The position numbers were made by a program, and so were the translations under genes. A stretch of 63,409 bases of DNA, filler included, from Diploschistes diacapsis (Eukaryota), in assembly GCA_023645945.1 (NCBI GenBank). It is 16 parts of 16 records of this genome, joined end to end, with 100 filler letters (N's around TTAATTAATTAA, not from the genome) between each part and the next. Parts side by side here need not be neighbours in the genome. Positions count along the whole stretch, not along the records: positions 1 to 21,149 come from JALAIB010000315.1; 15 more parts are not named here. One strand, written 5' to 3'. Positions 5,421 to 12,969 of this stretch are shown here, piece by piece; position 1 is the first letter of the stretch; each line of letters begins with the position of its first letter. The notes beneath the pieces were generated by a model. That model did not search any database. It saw only the letters and a program-made list of their open reading frames with translations, and was not told where the DNA came from.

Positions 5421-5957
5421 GTTTTAGGGAATGAAAGTCGAAGGACGGCCGACTCGGGCTCGATGAAACGACAGGCGCGGAGGGAATGAAACACACATGG
5501 ACTACATTGGTTGGGATCAGAGCTTAGCCACGAAAAGGAGCAAACAATCGGGGAATCGCTTCGTGAAGCAAAATGAAGAATTGAAGCTCTCCGTGCGCTG
5601 CTGTCGAGGGAAACGGAAAGTGGCTGGCGGGCGCCAAATTGACTTTCCGTAAGACCCGCAGTCCACTAAACGGCCGTTTAGTGGCGGGCGGGCATTGCAG
5701 GGGTCGCACGTGGGATGGAAAAAAATGACATCAAATTACCCTCGCTCTTTCAGAGCAACTTTATAATAGACATTCATATTGGCATTCACATTCACATTCA
5801 CAGTCTGTTTGGATGTAACAGGAGTCATGTACGGCATGATTCCTTCTTCAATTGTTAAACGCCCATAACGCCTTGATAATACACTATCAAACTCCAGTGC
5901 CTACCTACATAACCCGTCAGGTGAATCCATACAGAAAGATCTTCCACATCCGAGTCG

Positions 5958-6956
5958 TTACTGGATGTCTACCTTCTTGATCTCAACAAACTCATCTGCC
6001 TTTGGAACACGAATCATCAACACCCCATCCTCCATTTTTGCGGTGATGCCATCGGCGTTCACGGCAGCTGGCTGAGACTTGCTACCCAGCTTAATCTTCC
6101 TTTCGAAAACCCCAATGTTTCGCTCGTCCAGGGCCAAAGTCTTCAACAATGCCTCATCTCCAGGCCGGTGAATGACACCTGAAACAGAAACCTCCGAATT
6201 CTCACGGTCCCAGCTGACGCCACAATGTTCTTTCTGTGCACCGGCCAGCGAAACATGGATGACGTAAGCGTCACTAGTATCAAAGACGTCGACTGGTGGC
6301 TTGAAATCCTTCTCTTCGGTACTCTTCGGCACCACAGCGTCAAATCCGAAATTATCCCTCATAAACTCTCCTAGCGTCTCCATGTTGAGTCCTCCTTTAT
6401 TCACATCAAAGAACCGCCCCCACCCAGCAGCGCCACCACGGCCGCCTCGTCCTCTCCACCCACCGCGACGTCCGCCGAAAGCACCAGGGAAGAAGGGCAT
6501 TCCGCCCGCTTGCCAGGGATTAAAGCTGGAACCGTCTGGTCCGTGATGTCCATGTGGTCCACCAGGGCCGTGATGACCGTGTGGGCCACCTCTATGATGA
6601 TGACGGCCTCGGCCACGCCAGCCTCCGCGGTGAGGGGGAGGGCCCTGAGGAGGTGGACCATGAGGGGGTTCAGCCTGGTACTCAGTGTCTGGTTGGGGTT
6701 GCGACGCTGCGAGTAGTGGAGAAGGCGGATCATCATATTCGTCACCTAATGGCGTCTTGTCGTCGTTGTAATCAGGTGATACTTTCTCGTGGCTGCTAGA
6801 TGACATGTGCTCGTGACGAGCATCTTCATTGCTTGGACCTTCGCCGTTATCACCCTGTGCGTCGTTGGGAGCTCCTTCTTGAAACGCGCCATCCATTTCA
6901 GCAACCCAGTCCCAAAACGGGTTCGGCTGTTGATTTAGTGCCTTAATGTTCGTCAT
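5958..6956 (-). CDS. HSP20/alpha-crystallin-domain small heat shock protein with long low-complexity N-terminus
   Basis: Single-exon 332-aa ORF. C-terminal PPVDVFDT...VSLAGAQK...GVFERKIKL...ITAKMEDGVLMIRVPK...KKVDI matches the alpha-crystallin domain with a terminal V-x-I motif. Confidence 0.9.
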   Translation of the reverse strand: MTNIKALNQQPNPFWDWVAEMDGAFQEGAPNDAQGDNGEGPSNEDARHEHMSSSSHEKVSPDYNDDKTPLGDEYDDPPSPLLAASQPQPDTEYQAEPPHGPPPQGPPPHRGGWRGRGRHHHRGGPHGHHGPGGPHGHHGPDGSSFNPWQAGGMPFFPGAFGGRRGGWRGRGGRGGAAGWGRFFDVNKGGLNMETLGEFMRDNFGFDAVVPKSTEEKDFKPPVDVFDTSDAYVIHVSLAGAQKEHCGVSWDRENSEVSVSGVIHRPGDEALLKTLALDERNIGVFERKIKLGSKSQPAAVNADGITAKMEDGVLMIRVPKADEFVEIKKVDIQ

Positions 6957-7679
6957 GTTGTAATGATCTCTAGGAATATGCAGGAGGTGTTGGTTTTCAG
7001 GCTAGTTGGATGGCTAGTTGGATGTATAGTAGAATGGTATAGTAGAATAGAATAGTAGAATGCGAGAATAGCAAGAAATATTGCAATGAGGACAAAGGAG
7101 AATTCTTATATGCAGTCAATCGCCACCCAGGCAAGCAGGACCACGTACAAGGCGTGGTGCCAAGCCCCTTGACGAGTTCGGGGCCTACGCAATACACGCA
7201 GGGGTCCCACAGCAGCCTGGACGCCCACAACAAGTGAATCAGAACTTAGAAACGCTGAGTGAAAAAGTGACGCTCTGGAAAGCTGGAAGAAGGCCGCAGA
7301 TGAGCTGGGTAACTCGCTTGTAGCTTTCGCGTATTGGTGGCTCTGTGTTTAGTTGCGCCGAGGCCGCGTGTCGCTTATGAAGGTTATGACATGACATGAA
7401 CTCGATGAGCTTGAAGCACGATTAAGCCAGTATTCCAGATGGGACGTTGTTCAACGCGTTAGGTTAGCGGGATTCAGAAGCTCTCAACAACTTCAAATCT
7501 TGGCTATACTACGACGTAGAGCCCTAACTGTGCTGTTTCGAGCAGACTCTAGCGAAGTATTTGCTCTCTGGCTCTGCTGATCACTGAAAAATGATTGTGG
7601 CGACGTTACAGTTTTACAGCGGCGAGGAGTGGCTGAGTAGGATACCTGCTTAGCTAAGCAGGTATTGTATTCTATTCTA

Positions 7680-7889
7680 ACGTGTTCCACCACACAACGG
7701 AACACACCACAAAGCGGAACACTACATTATAATGTAATTGCGCTAGATCGAGCGCTTCCATATTTGTACGAAGCTAAATCTGTTCTCAACCACACTACCC
7801 CGTTCTTCGGCCTTTAAGAAATACACTTTACGAAGGTGCAGGGATTATGTTCCGCTTTGTGGTGTGTTCCGTTGTGTGGTGGAACACGT
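7680..7889. mobile_element. 210-bp MITE of the Tc1/mariner (pogo/Fot1) type
   Basis: Perfect 42-bp TIRs (ACGTGTTCCACCACACAACGGAACACACCACAAAGCGGAACA at 7680-7721, reverse complement at 7848-7889), TA target duplication at 7678-7679 and 7890-7891, no coding capacity. Confidence 0.92.
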
Positions 7890-7972
7890 TATCTAAAGTC
7901 CAAACTCCGAATCTTCTCCGATGATAACGTAAATCAGTCGGTACGGACAAACAATATCGCCGTTCCATCACT

Positions 7973-9525
7973 TCATGAATTTTGAAGCAGTACGGCTAAT
8001 ACATGAGTTGAGCTAGCCATCCAGTAACCATTATCGTCCTCGGAGCAACCTTTGACCCAGGAGAAGGCTTTGCGATCGAGGCCAGAAAGCTTGAAGAGCT
8101 TTGCATACGCATATGCCTTCTTATCTGCGAGAGATGGCCTCAATTCGCGTCGGGTGCAAAGAAAGTCTTTGACCACAGCCCAGTCTTCTCTCATGGGCAG
8201 ATTCTGACAGAGGAAAGTCTTCAAAGATGATTCGCCGTGGGTCTTGCTCAACGCCGTGAACCGTCCTATTATGTATTCTTTCGCTTGTTCCGCGTCCGAT
8301 GGGTCGTCTAGTTCGGGGATTTCGCCGAAGCGTTGGGTTAGTGGAATTCTCTTCAAACTCTGCGCAAAGCCAGCAACGTTGATAAAGCAGATCGCCATCT
8401 TCGTGCTGGAGTACCTGCGTGATTTGGCAATGCTGTCCCAGTCTGCCAAGCTTGAGTGCAGATAAGTTACATTGGGTTCACCTGCGTTTACCAGCCTAGC
8501 ATAATCTGCTAGGTCTACTGTGAACAGCACTGATGATACCAATGCATAAAATCCCTTCAACATTTTGAGGCCCCCATGCGATCGAGAAGCATCCAGAACA
8601 GTCCAGGCAACTCTTTGACTTTCAAAATAAGTATAACAAGCCCCGCGACGTCCGATGTGGATATGAAGTAGATCTGCATCCGAGGGAACATATTCTGGCT
8701 GGGAGAGTTGTCCAATCCTATTGAAGAAGCTGCTCAGCTGTAAGAGAAAGTGACAATTGAGGTCAAAAATTCTCACTGAGCTTTGCTATTGCCAGTATCA
8801 GAGAACTCTTCGTTCTCGAGACAAGATCGCACAGCAGCGTCATGCCAAAGGGCAGTGACCGCCTCAACTATATCCTGCGGCAAAGTGTCGCAGTCTACGA
8901 AGACTTTGTCGTGTGCTAAAGTCTCGAAGTGCCTTTCTTCTATTTCCGTAGCAAATGGGATCTTACAACTGATCGTGTTCCAAAGTAGATTCTGCATAGA
9001 AGAACTGACAAAAGCAAATATGTCACGTTTGCATTGAGAAACTTGGGCAGCTCTCAAAGGGCCACGTTCATGAGTTTTCATCGAGTAAAGCCAGCGTCCA
9101 TTGGCGTGCGAGCTCCTGGTCAATAAGAGCACCATCACATGTTGCTTGTCCTTGTCTTTTTCCAGCTCTTTGTCAATCTGTTGAGACCGCCGTGTGGCCA
9201 TCCATTCTGTCCATGGGAGCCATGCCTTCTGATCCCAGCCATTTTGCAGGCTACCCAAGGTCGATGTTCCAGTCTCCGTGTCTTGCGATTCGTGGGGAGC
9301 AGACCAGTCCTGCAAAGCATTCGGACCTCTAAAAGCCTTCTTCTCATCTGCAGGCCCTGCCACTTGCCGCGAGGACGATGCTTGAGGTGCCTCGTCCGTA
9401 GATGTCCATGTATCGCCGTCGGACAAAGATCTTTTCTCATTCAAAGGCTTGATAAGTTCGTCTTCTGGATGAGCATCTGTTGCTCCACTCTCTAAAAGAT
9501 AGGTCGTAGACGAATTGCCTTCCAT
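7973..9525 (-). CDS. Highly divergent heterotrimeric G-protein alpha-like protein (~501 aa) with degenerate GTPase motifs
   Basis: Exons 9525-8777 and 8729-7973 join through a 47-nt GT-AG intron (..KA-H-FFNRI..). G-alpha scaffold is recognisable: RRSQQIDKELEKD, AVTALWHDAAVRSC, LSQPEYVPSDADLL, VSSVLFTVDLADY, AKEYIIGRF. Confidence 0.82.
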
Positions 9526-10213
9526 AATGACCTTCTCGAAGCTACTGATCCTACCTCATGCCATTAAAGGTGAAAAGAATGCAGCAAACAAATACGAAGA
9601 CAAACATGCTCATTGACTAATTTCATTTAGTTCAAGGATGTCGAAACCTTACGATTATCAAAGATGCTCAACCTCCATGCGTAGAAAACCACCTCGAGTG
9701 CAAGTCTTCGTCGTCAAATACTCATCTTCTAAATGCATAGAAAAGGATAAGGATCAGTAACTGCAAAACGCACTTGTGCATGACGATGCCGCTTGACGCT
9801 AAGCAGCAAGGCCACGCGGTACATGAAGGGACAAAATCCCAACTCTATTAAGCAAAAGTTCGTAAAATGTGCCTATCAAAATGATGCTCTGCCATCTGGG
9901 TTGATGCAGAAAATCTACTACGGACAACTCGGAGATAAGATCTGCCCTGAATCTAACTCGCCGGGGCCTTGCAGATGGCCTTCACCACGTCCTACCCGGT
10001 AGCTACAACAACTGCCACGCTCTACGGCTCGAACTTCCCATTCAGCAAAGCAGTTGCAGTTCGCGCAGAATGAAGGAGAGCGGGGAGCGGAATTGTTACA
10101 GAAGAAGTCCAAGGCCGAGACAAATAGCCTGACCGACCCCCTCAAGGCTTACTCTCCTAAAGATCAAACGTTAACCCATTTACATCCAGGACCAGCCTGC
10201 ATCCCGTCCTACC

Positions 10214-10955
10214 ATGGCAACGCCGCAACGCACCCACTTCCGCGCCCCCGAGCGCGTCACATCCCTCCTAAAAGACCTCCACCAGGAAGAGACACCGAAA
10301 GGCCCCGGAGGGCGGTCACGAGCAGTTCCGCGAAGCCGCGCGGATGATGCAGAACAAGTTCATCGCGCTCGACGAAGGCAAGGCGCTGTTTGTCCACCGC
10401 CTTGTGCGAGCGACGGGCGCTTTGAACGTGGTCGAGGCTGGCACCAGCTTCGGCGGGAGCACCATCCATCTAGCCACTGCCGTGGGGGTCAGAACGCCAA
10501 CGATGCGGCGAAGCGGCCGGGAGAGGCGCAGGGTGATTGCTAGCGAGCATGAGCCAATGAAAGCTGCGCGGGCTCGAGAGAATTGCGCGGTTGGCGGGCC
10601 CGACTGTTGAGCCGTGGATCGAGCTTGGTGGGGGAGACGTACGGGAGCCGCTTAAGGAGGTGCCGCCCGTTGACTTTATGTTGCTTGACAGCGAGTTTCC
10701 GACATCGCTGTGTTGCAGCATTTGACTCGTGGGACTATGGTCTGGACGCCAATGGTCTTGCCTGTAATCAAGCTTCTCGAGCCGAGCCTCAAACCAGGCT
10801 GTGTTATCATTACCGACATCACCATCTCGCCTGCCAAAGGTCATCGGGACTTTTTCAATCATATCAATGCGCACGACAGGCCCTATACAACCCTCACCCT
10901 GTCCTAGTCCAATGGGCATGAAATGACAGTCTATCGTCCGAGTATTAAGCGTTGA
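10214..10955 (+). pseudogene. Class I SAM-dependent O-methyltransferase pseudogene
   Basis: Segments KFIALDEGKA...VVEAGTSFGGSTIHLA...IASEHEP, VEPWIELGGGDVRE...VDFMLLD and WTPMVLPVIKLLEPSLKPG lie in different frames (frameshifts near 10300 and 10600). The expected intron acceptor reads GG at ~10740 and there is an in-frame TAG at 10905-10907. Confidence 0.8.
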
Positions 10956-11235
10956 TATGGGCGACGGAGCTGCAGCACGGCAATCGTAGGACATCACGAG
11001 GGAAGACCCGTTTTCATCATTGATGGTAGCGTGTTACTGCAGATATCTTGTCAACTGTATCAGTGGTTCACCGATGTCATTATTGTAGCTAAATTGGCGT
11101 GACGGTGAATGCTGCTGAACATTTCCCTAGAGCGCACCCTCGGCAGTAGTAGCTACCTCCATTTTGCTCTCAGTCTCTCTTTCAAGACTTGACTCGCACC
11201 CGCAGAAAACCCCTGTATATCCTTGCTGTCTCTCT

Positions 11236-12969
11236 TCACGATAGTTCTGCTGAGAACTTTCCCTTCCTACGAATTGCTGGTCCATATTTGTAGAACAGGA
11301 ATGGAATTGGGACCAGGCAAACGGCAAAGAACCCGAACACGCTCGTCGCCCACCCTATTCCCAGCGCCGAATACATCGGATTGATGAACAGTGGGAACGA
11401 AAGAGCCAGAATGCTCCGGAGAAACGTGTTCGCCGCGATGGCGCTGGCAGAATATATCCTGAACGTGTCGATCAAATAATTGAGCGCGCTTTGAAAGATT
11501 GTGAAGAACCCAAATCCGAGCATCACAGTTCCTATTACAGGAACAAGCCAAAAGATGGTTCGGCTAGCAGTCCATCCGAACAGAAAGCAGCCGCCCATGA
11601 ACACAACAGAGCCGACCATCATCGGCGGCAGCCGGGCTTCGGGCACTGGCTTGTTCCCGTTGGCTTCAAAGCGGGAGTTGTAGAAGCGTTGGTTGAGCAC
11701 GTTGACACAGCCTGCCAATACTACACCGACTAGCAAGCCTAGGAAGGGTAGAGAGCCCACAAGAGAGTTCCACCCGCGCTCCTCTTCGAAGACAATCGGG
11801 AAGGCCGCGAGATTGCCGTACAGCAACCCATAGACAAAGGAGGCGTAGAGCGCGACAAAGAAGCAGATGGGAGTCAAGAGCATGCGCAGAGGCCGGACAC
11901 CGAATTTGACAATCATTTCCGAAATGGAAGGGTCCCATTCCTCGTGACGAGCGTGCAAAGCCCAGTTGCCAGTCTTGATGCGTAAACGGGTCGCTTTGTG
12001 CTTCAGAAGGGCCGGCGGATAACTTTCTTCCAGGATCGTAATGCTGAGGGCCCACACAACAGTCATGAAGATCCCAGCGATGAATTGTGTCCAGCGCCAG
12101 TTGACTCCCGATACGACTAGGGCCCCCCCTACGATGGGGCCAAAGATGGGACCACCGACGACGGCAAAGGCGTAGAAAACAATGGCCGTGGCGCGTTGCG
12201 TAGGAGGCCAGATATCGCTCATCACGCCGCCGGTGTTGGTGACAGGTGCGGAGGTGAAGATACCGAGGAAGAAATGTGTGATGAGTAGGGTTTGGATATC
12301 CTTTGCGGAGCCGGCGGCGAAGGCGAACATGGCGCCGACGAAGTACGGAATGAGTACGGCAGGCTTCCGCCCGTAGATCTCGGAGATGGGACCCCAGACC
12401 ATTGGGCCAAGACCGAAGCCGGCGAGGATGAGGGAGATGTTGAGAAGGGCTATCTCTTCGCCTACTTGAAAGTCTTGCGATATAATATCGACTATCGGAC
12501 TTTGGATTGTGCTAGTGAAGGTTGCGCCCTAGAAAGGGGTTAGTTTACGCAAGGTAAGGGCAATCCCGATAGAACATACCATTGTACATAGTCCATACAG
12601 CGTTGTTGTAATGACCTTTTTCCGCAACGGCCAATTGAGGGGATGATAGGGGTCCTTCGGCCCATCAAAGTCCACAATCACATCCTGCACGGTCTTTACG
12701 TGCGACAACGGATGCGAGAAGGTGGTGTCAAAGGCTCTTCGGTTTGACAAGCTCTGCACTCGGCTAATGCGAGCGCTCACGGTTCTGGACGCTCGAAACT
12801 CATCCGTGTCTCTGCTAGGACCCTTCTCGAGGTCCTGGGTTCCTCCGGCATGGTTTCCCGGCCGGCTGTTGGAGTTGTGATCTGTCACCGAGCTGCTGTT
12901 CCTCGAGGATGCTCGTGTAGCATCATGGCCGTACGATGACGTGTTTATGTTTGTGATGGTTGGTGCCAT
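11236..12969 (-). CDS. MFS drug:H+ antiporter (DHA1 family)
   Basis: Exons 12969-12580 and 12528-11236. Motifs VDFDGPKDPYHPLNWP, GPMVWGPISEIYGRKP, NWRWT, PEARLPPMM and LNYLIDTF, with many hydrophobic segments. Confidence 0.93.

Follow-up and report, generated by a model that had tools for sequence, protein, structure and literature searches.

A G-alpha-like gene of the lichen-forming ascomycete Diploschistes diacapsis that keeps the predicted fold and has lost all five nucleotide boxes

The window analysed here is a stretch of 63,409 nucleotides (filler included) from the lichen-forming ascomycete Diploschistes diacapsis (assembly GCA_023645945.1), consisting of 16 parts of 16 records joined end to end. 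On its minus strand, at 7973..9525, lies a two-exon gene whose product resembles the alpha subunit of heterotrimeric G proteins (G-alpha), with all five of the guanine-nucleotide boxes, G1 to G5, replaced. Descriptions of heterotrimeric signalling in filamentous fungi usually count three canonical alpha subunits. The gene is real and intact. We argue that it derives from a canonical G-alpha gene by duplication at the DNA level and that its relatives form an old clade of equally degenerate paralogues. With moderate confidence, we read its product as a long-maintained adaptor that works without nucleotide.

The coding sequence (CDS) has 501 codons and a stop, with one intron. Exon 1 (8777..9525) holds codons 1-249 plus 2 nt, and encodes an N-terminal extension, the alpha-N helix, the degenerate P-loop and most of the helical domain. 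Exon 2 (7973..8729) holds 1 nt, codons 251-501 and the stop, and encodes the Ras-like half with the degenerate switch I, G3, G4 and G5, followed by the C-terminal tail. Its coding part, 8729..7976, runs directly into the stop codon at 7975..7973. The 501-residue translation of 9525..8777 joined to 8729..7976 is 100% identical to KAI4152210.1 (P0154 in our searches), which is titled 'MAG: hypothetical protein LQ340_003052 [Diploschistes diacapsis]' and belongs to a genome put together from a metagenome, and the GenBank annotation uses the same exon model. So does the initial annotation of this stretch, which had reported an intact G-alpha-like spliced frame of about 501 aa. Joining and translating the exons shows that its coordinates were right and that the gene is on the minus strand, and the identity to KAI4152210.1, together with the match to the G-alpha profile PF00503, confirms the frame. 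The computed chance of a frame of 501 codons staying open is about 5.6e-12.

The intron (8730..8776) is 47 nt long, in phase 2, and of the form GTGAGA...CAG; read from 8776 to 8730 its ends are GTGAGAATTT...TTACAGCTGAGCAG. Three AGs could serve as the acceptor, at intron positions 39, 44 and 47; use of 44 or 47 leaves the reading frame intact, and use of 39 does not. Splicing at AG47, which removes all 47 nt, gives a gap-free alignment to human G-alpha-i1, and on this homology we infer that AG47 is the acceptor used. If CTTAC at intron positions 33-37 is the branch site, it would be too near AG39, and AG47 would be the natural choice.

Membership of the G-alpha family is clear from profile searches. 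Against PF00503, a comparison the initial annotation had proposed as a check, the whole protein scores 110.7 bits (E 1.1e-31), above the cutoff of 48.8, with residues 112-416 on profile positions 2-306 of 333. Each exon matches separately, exon 1 with E 2.3e-8 (profile 2-135) and exon 2 with E 2e-17 (profile 144-306). Several conventional G-alpha proteins score 408-640 bits on the same profile, as against 110.7 here. A phmmer search of the PDB places residues 109-424 on residues 11-325 of G-alpha-i1 without large gaps (E 2.1e-21), and exon 2 alone finds G-alpha-i1 with E 1.7e-12.

The predicted structure agrees. An AlphaFold2 model built from a 150-row alignment has a mean predicted local distance difference test score (pLDDT) of 75.2 and a predicted template-modelling score (pTM) of 0.70, with pLDDT of at least 90 in 253 of the 501 residues. 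Its confident core spans residues 103-445, mostly at pLDDT 80-97, and the order of elements within it is canonical: alpha-N (103-124), beta-1, the helical domain, then the Ras-like strands and helices. Alpha-1 and the all-helical domain (residues 139-258; 8705..9111, spanning the intron) are modelled as helices with pLDDT mostly 80-97, and correspond to PF00503 positions 2-135. The best Foldseek matches to the model are G-alpha chains only (Gi, Gq, G12/13, Gs, Gt), the first being 3qi2_A with E 3.2e-21, a target-normalised template-modelling (TM) score of 0.83 and a root-mean-square deviation of 3.0; the target-normalised TM score is 0.71-0.86 among the matches listed. A comparison with the ESM Atlas gave generic G-alpha clusters only (0.91-0.93), a cluster of the plant XLG proteins among them, and serves as a lead. 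The model and the matches indicate that the protein keeps the complete G-alpha fold, including the inserted helical domain, and the claim that helical domain and strand order survive therefore stands at the level of prediction.

The nucleotide site is another matter. In alignments with canonical proteins, G1 or the P-loop (9091..9129) reads LLLTRSSHANGRW in place of LLLGxGESGKST or LLLGAGESGK(S/C)T. Switch I (8639..8665) reads HIHIGRRGA for LRTRVKTTGI, its core being HIGRRGA where the canonical proteins have RVKTTGI, a change that removes the catalytic Arg and the Mg-binding Thr. G3 and switch II (8543..8593) read DASRSHGGLKMLKGFYA for DVGGQRSERKKWIHCFE, with DASRS where DVGGQ is expected. G4 (8369..8386) reads FINVAG for FLNKKD, NKKD having become NVAG, and G5 (8201..8215) reads FLCQN for FTCAT, TCAT having become LCQN. 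All five boxes are thus replaced, and with the fold kept in the model and the G motifs lost in the alignments the protein is a putative pseudo-GTPase. The lipidation signal is missing as well. The protein opens with MEGNSS, its internal Met109 is followed by Ala, and an MG start is found in 10 of the 11 canonical sequences of the same alignment. Every one of these replacements, and the lack of a myristoylation start, had been listed in the initial annotation, and each can be seen in the alignments.

Since all five boxes are lost, we call the protein nucleotide-independent. Canonical binding or hydrolysis of guanine nucleotide is presumably beyond it, a view that rests on the lost motifs and on the lack of conservation of those columns among its relatives. 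Repeat-induced point mutation was considered as the cause of the degeneration and rejected (TpA/ApT 0.56; (CpA+TpG)/(ApC+GpT) 1.54).

The relatives come from an exhaustive HMMER search with exon 2 against 1.84 billion cluster representatives. It gave 267 matches at E<=1e-3, 10 at E<=1e-10 and a single one at E<=1e-30, which is the window's own open reading frame (ORF). The nearest non-self matches, P0005-P0008, come from ENA metagenome assemblies as unnamed ORFs, each a singleton 90% cluster, with E 7e-28 to 3.6e-16; P0005 is the closest (E 7e-28, 37% identity). We built a quick, unrooted IQ-TREE tree of 65 rows from the query and 64 of the 65 best matches P0005-P0069, P0044 having been dropped as too short. 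In this tree the query and P0005-P0008 form one clade with a support of 99 in the Shimodaira-Hasegawa-like approximate likelihood ratio test (SH-aLRT). Cluster names were found for proteins from Puccinia, Coprinopsis, Trametes, Xylaria and protists, and they gave no group I-III label for the nearest tree rows.

Members of this clade are 29-36% identical in a five-sequence alignment. G3, G4 and G5 are missing in all four relatives, and P0005 and P0008, in which the N-terminal part is present, also lack GK[ST]. Because the degenerate state is common to members this far apart, the loss is probably old and the open frame would have been maintained after it. The G3 column reads DASRS, SFPRL, DLPRS, QISYH and EQPSI in the five members, and 17 other columns, including those of FTVDxxxYA, WDS, AxCxI and LPxxED, are invariant across them. 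This is the pattern to be expected if the nucleotide site had long been free to drift while the fold was under constraint.

A wider group (P0009, P0010, P0016, P0018, P0024 and P0034) joins the clade with SH-aLRT 90, and P0141, outside the tree, has the same motifs. These are metagenomic G-alpha fragments with TKQxK for NKxD and with DLPxxEDW in place of TCAT and the long alpha-5, and we call them the 'TKQ/EDW' group. They are exon-sized ORFs, so their N-terminal halves, G1 included, lie outside what they cover. Among the members that cover the regions concerned, most keep RxxTTGI and all keep DxGG. This suggests a stepwise loss of motifs from the 'TKQ/EDW' group to the dead clade, the order being taken from an unrooted tree.

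The architecture of the clade also varies, since the window protein has the helical domain in its model and P0005 does not. In the P0005 model from AlphaFold2 (mean pLDDT 72.2), a long alpha-N and beta-1 are followed directly by the Ras-like strands, and the PF00503 match of P0005 covers profile positions 181-314 only, which agrees with a missing helical domain. P0005 and P0008 alike pass from beta-1 to beta-2 and beta-3 after about 40-55 residues; they look like nucleotide-dead 'mini' G-alphas.

Other searches added no closer relative. Word-index searches turned up no orthologue similar enough for an analysis of codons, and a near-length search returned only the window's own cluster. So did a family-profile search, which is insensitive, as it missed the profile's own members. 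The five-member clade alignment gave 324 pattern matches among metagenome contigs and 0 confirmed ones.

Where the gene came from can be read from its intron. A scan of metagenomes with the 'TKQ/EDW' group gave 80 loci at 43-50% identity, and one of them, L001, was examined for the intron comparison. L001 is a canonical G-alpha gene (MGCGMSTEEKEGK... LLLG | AGESGKST ...) with a phase-2 intron between NDSAR-Y and YFDSIDRI. The window intron is in phase 2 as well and lies at the homologous codon (NSKA-H | FFNRIG); an intron that L001 carries in the P-loop is missing from the window gene. The match in position and phase points to duplication, at the DNA level, of an intron-bearing canonical fungal G-alpha gene, and this is the origin we propose. 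The shared phase also gives the annotated splice independent support.

The surfaces through which a G-alpha meets its partners have fared unequally. The N-terminal extension (residues 1-102; 9220..9525) is predicted to be disordered, with pLDDT below 50 at residues 1-78 and 80-97, and its roughly 100 aa match no Pfam domain. Its last part, directly before alpha-N, is rich in Trp (WDQKAWLPWTEWM, 9199-9237). Extensions of a similar kind, with aromatic-rich stretches at the same place, are found in P0005 and P0008, and it is a speculation of ours that the Trp-rich segment could replace the lost lipid anchor. Alpha-N itself (residues 103-124; 9154..9219), a helix in the AlphaFold2 model, carries RRSQQIDKEL (9163-9192). 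The window protein, like P0005 and P0008, has RRSxx[IV]DxxL here, a motif similar to that of canonical alpha-N, which is one of the two surfaces that contact G-beta.

Switch II, the other of these two surfaces, tells a different story. The four relatives keep (E/Q)RKKW(I/L)H, where the window protein reads LKMLKGFY. The initial annotation had proposed a decoy for G-beta-gamma. In its favour the alpha-N motif RRSxxIDxxL is kept, and against it the switch II contacts RKKWIHxF are replaced by LKMLKGFY, so the role is plausible for the clade and, with these contacts rewritten, weaker for the window copy.

The alternative proposal of a decoy for G-protein-coupled receptors (GPCRs) finds no support. 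The short alpha-5 (residues 427-442; 8153..8200; a helix at 430-441 in the model) bears the signature LPxxEDWxxVKxF, a region that both the clade and the wider 'TKQ/EDW' group conserve. The protein lacks a full-length alpha-5 and with it the C-terminus that docks to receptors: in the clade the helix stops about 10 residues past EDW, P0005, P0006 and P0008 end 10-15 residues past the Trp of EDW, and the PF00503 match of the window protein stops at profile position 306 of 333. As alpha-5 is cut short in the clade, receptor coupling through it is unlikely.

The locus is found in three DNA runs. X1 probably corresponds to the source sample, X2 is a rock metagenome, and X3 comes from coded organism A. 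The share of sampled words is 0.45 for X2 and 0.40 for X3, and the locus is present in both at roughly 97-99% identity. Contigs of X2 and X3 were aligned over 5900-12600, and the differences considered here are the 40 listed out of 177, with 12 of 57 indels. Among those listed, at least 8 fall in the CDS, all common to X2 and X3: three synonymous changes, K460Q, W347L, R198K, K123R and 8152 G>A.

The last of these makes codon 443 (8150..8152), which is CGA (Arg) in the window, a TGA stop in X2 and X3, with a depth of 4.3 of 4.3 in X2 and 88.3 of 88.3 in X3. The product of these alleles ends ...EDWAVVKDFLCT, the same end as that of P0005 in the alignment. What follows in the window allele, residues 443-501 (7976..8152), is an unconserved, allele-specific tail modelled with low confidence (pLDDT is 66-67 over residues 441-460 and 53 over 461-470, and drops below 50 from 466 on), and P0005, P0006 and P0008 lack it. 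Its 177 nt hold 4 of the 8 listed differences, as against 4 in the 1326-nt core (Fisher p 0.009), and the chance of a 58-codon read-through staying open is about 5%. The tail of about 58 aa is not a fixed feature, whichever allele is ancestral. The description of both termini as extended is thus half right: some 100 residues do precede alpha-N, and the C-terminal extension belongs to one allele.

Several known systems can be set beside this protein. Canonical G-alpha subunits (PF00503, groups I-III, human G-alpha-i1) share with it the profile match, the two-domain fold in the model, the alpha-N motif and one intron. It differs from them in lacking the five boxes, the MG/Cys start, the full alpha-5 and the switch II motif, and in having a disordered N-terminus of 100 aa and a variable tail. 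Pseudo-GTPases such as CENP-M and the pG domains of p190RhoGAP keep the GTPase fold without the G motifs and are presumed to be scaffolds. The likeness lies in that combination; the difference is that they derive from Ras-like small GTPases, whereas the window protein would be a full G-alpha with its helical domain.

The closest parallel is with plants. XLG proteins are plant-specific and have a large N-terminal domain before a G-alpha-like domain. Compared with canonical G-alpha, XLG2 is a 100-1000 times weaker binder of GTP-gamma-S; it keeps binding to G-beta-gamma and to regulator of G-protein signalling (RGS) proteins, and it has been proposed to act as a decoy, independent of nucleotide, by holding G-beta-gamma (bioRxiv 10.1101/795088). 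Both proteins have G-alpha-homologous domains without the residues for nucleotide binding and hydrolysis. However, the window protein is fungal and would be of independent origin, its extension is predicted to be disordered and matches no Pfam domain, and its switch II contacts to G-beta are replaced. It is at most XLG-like in its working and is not a member of the plant family. The binding of XLG2 has been measured, and the window protein is known here from its sequence and a predicted structure.

Within fungi there are extra G-alpha proteins, Ustilago Gpa4 (580 aa) and Aspergillus GaoC (690 aa), whose entry in a 2025 review is 'function unknown' (PMC13267034). Compared by these descriptions only, they resemble the window protein in being longer G-alpha homologues outside groups I-III. 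P0033 from Xylaria grammica (683 aa, near GaoC in size) keeps G1 as GTSESGKST, switch I and DVGG, and belongs to a separate clade (SH-aLRT 98). It has TKLD for NKxD and no TCAT, and P0033 and P0036 (592 aa) have N-terminal extensions of about 250-350 residues. The literature searched, a scope that did not include the G-alpha survey of Anantharaman et al. 2011, describes no fungal G-alpha in which every G box is lost, and XLG2 was the only published parallel found there. The degenerate clade, the shared intron, the short alpha-5 with the rewritten switch II and the unfixed tail are new here.

We believe that these observations are best explained by a long-maintained, nucleotide-independent adaptor on the G-alpha fold, belonging to an undescribed clade of degenerate fungal G-alphas, and we hold this to be rather probable on the sequence comparisons and models. 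A canonical, intron-bearing fungal G-alpha gene would have been duplicated at the DNA level, and the resulting gene belongs to a small, old and fast-evolving clade of equally degenerate paralogues. The protein would no longer be a timed switch and would serve as an adaptor regardless of nucleotide. It would not dock to GPCRs through its truncated alpha-5. With the alpha-N motif retained, G-beta-gamma would be the most plausible partner for the clade, and would be held by a decoy or sink in the way proposed for plant XLG2. In the window copy, where switch II is rewritten, any binding of G-beta-gamma would be weaker or redirected to another partner.

A bolder form of this idea makes the whole clade an ancient, nucleotide-dead group of ascomycete G-alphas that act as constitutive, receptor-independent holders of G-beta-gamma or other partners, an independent counterpart of the XLGs. 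It would include members without the helical domain (P0005, P0008) and would descend stepwise from the 'TKQ/EDW' group, which first lost guanine recognition and the end of the receptor-docking helix. As a whole we consider this doubtful.

The adaptor reading has to be weighed against decay, its main rival. The clade may once have been functional and the window copy a relic under relaxed selection, drifting toward a pseudogene with little or no translation and no role. We judge this unlikely, though it must be taken seriously, and a number of observations count for it and against a maintained adaptor. Codon 443 is polymorphic between stop and sense. The listed differences from X2 and X3 stand at 5:3 non-synonymous (the stop/sense change included) to synonymous, which is compatible with neutrality (binomial p 0.39), and in the X2 contig over 8552-8985, 12 of 434 nt differ (2.8%), as much as in intergenic DNA. 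G+C content at third codon positions is low, 0.49-0.51 as against 0.60-0.66 in three of four neighbour genes, the fourth (Hsp20) being at 0.50. The window copy has the longest terminal branch of the clade (1.61) and alone lacks the RKKWIH motif of switch II. AG39 has the best pyrimidine tract of the three possible acceptors, and splicing there would create CA|C TGA and so end the product at 250 aa; the use of AG47 is read from homology. A putative transposable element present in many copies lies 82 bp past the stop codon. Two further points tell against the adaptor: the X3 contig over 7915-8685 has 7 gap letters, which may lie in what is 3' untranslated region in that lineage, and neither the exhaustive HMMER search nor the word-index searches found an orthologue above 37% identity.

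Against decay stand the open frame of 501 codons (chance about 6e-12), the canonical donor and inherited intron phase, and the confident fold prediction for residues 103-445. Nor does the sequence bear the mark of repeat-induced point mutation. Over 8214-8574, X2 differs at 1 of 361 nt, and its contigs have no gaps over 8214-8985, where intergenic pieces of X2 have 29-33 gap letters. The stop in X2 and X3 falls exactly at the end of P0005, so it need not be disabling. Relaxed selection is compatible with the listed within-lineage substitutions, and the observations on constraint at present point both ways. The initial annotation had held that the gene is not a recent pseudogene. The history of the gene supports this, with its old clade, 501-codon frame, predicted fold and inherited intron; the listed differences, at 5:3, do not show it for the present day.

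The rapid change of the clade could also be diversifying selection and not decay, if the protein were a degenerate G-alpha bait or adaptor in a pathway of non-self recognition or cell death. The clade is indeed very fast-evolving and patchy (5 clusters in 1.84 billion representatives), with long branches, and the polymorphism of the tail is of a presence/absence type. There are other atypical fungal proteins with a G-alpha domain and long N-terminal extensions, P0033 for example, and P0036 has a match to PigL_N (PF17111). However, that match is below threshold (E 0.0093; 15.8 bits, where 27.2 would be required) and in a different protein, the P0033 group is a separate clade with G1 intact, the N-terminus of the window protein matches no domain and is predicted to be disordered, and the neighbours are ordinary genes (Hsp20, a transporter, a dehydrogenase/reductase, a transcription factor). 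This makes a part in conflict improbable. Some pseudo-GTPases bind nucleotide without hydrolysing it, and the predicted fold keeps the elements that form the pocket, helical-domain lid included, so the protein could in principle bind a nucleotide or small ligand in a non-canonical way and remain some kind of switch. We think this very improbable, since the motifs that contact phosphate, Mg and guanine are all replaced at once, and the box columns vary within the clade, G3 having five different readings, unlike a maintained ligand site.

If the adaptor reading is true, this would be a fungal pseudo-GTPase on the G-alpha scaffold, from a clade in which the loss of the boxes is old. It would be a natural experiment on which surfaces of G-alpha matter once the switch is gone. 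Should the protein hold G-beta-gamma or another partner free of nucleotide control, fungal G-protein signalling would gain a further level of regulation, possibly one relevant to the lichen state. If it is only a slowly decaying duplicate, the interest is minor.

The genes around this one include those for a DIP2/Mug62-like AMP-binding protein, Hsp20, a major facilitator superfamily transporter, a short-chain dehydrogenase/reductase and a fungal transcription factor. No gene for G-beta, RGS proteins or GPCRs is evident among the window ORFs scanned, and no functional linkage to the neighbours is apparent. Among the 150 best HMMER matches, many homologues of full-length size lack joint matches to G1, G3 and G4 by crude regular expressions, examples being P0021 from Coprinopsis (352 aa), P0022, P0025 and P0067. 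Judged by these motif counts, degenerate G-alpha paralogues seem common in some fungal lineages. P0011 from Diversispora epigaea (RHZ80765.1, 456 aa), annotated as a G-alpha, has an internal duplication of about 100 residues from the helical domain through switch I, either real or an artefact of assembly or annotation; its P-loop reads GSGESGIST and its G3 DVSGQ.

The element beyond the stop codon, at 7678-7891, resembles a miniature inverted-repeat transposable element (MITE). It is 214 bp long, with perfect terminal inverted repeats of 44 nt and TA at both borders, and occurs once in the window. Contig depth over it is about 21250 in X1, as against about 90-99 in its flanks, and about 99000 in X3, as against about 90; many distinct flanks begin at 7677/7678 and at 7891/7892. 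Depth and flanks together indicate hundreds to about 1000 copies in these assemblies. At 7635-7672, immediately upstream of this element, is a 19-nt near-palindrome, 84% complementary, with adjacent arms. Two indels fall inside an open frame of 187 codons on the minus strand (10470-11033) that has no Pfam match: the X3 contigs skip 146 nt, from 10481 to 10628, and the X2 contig skips 84 nt, from 10517 to 10602, with 2 other letters between.

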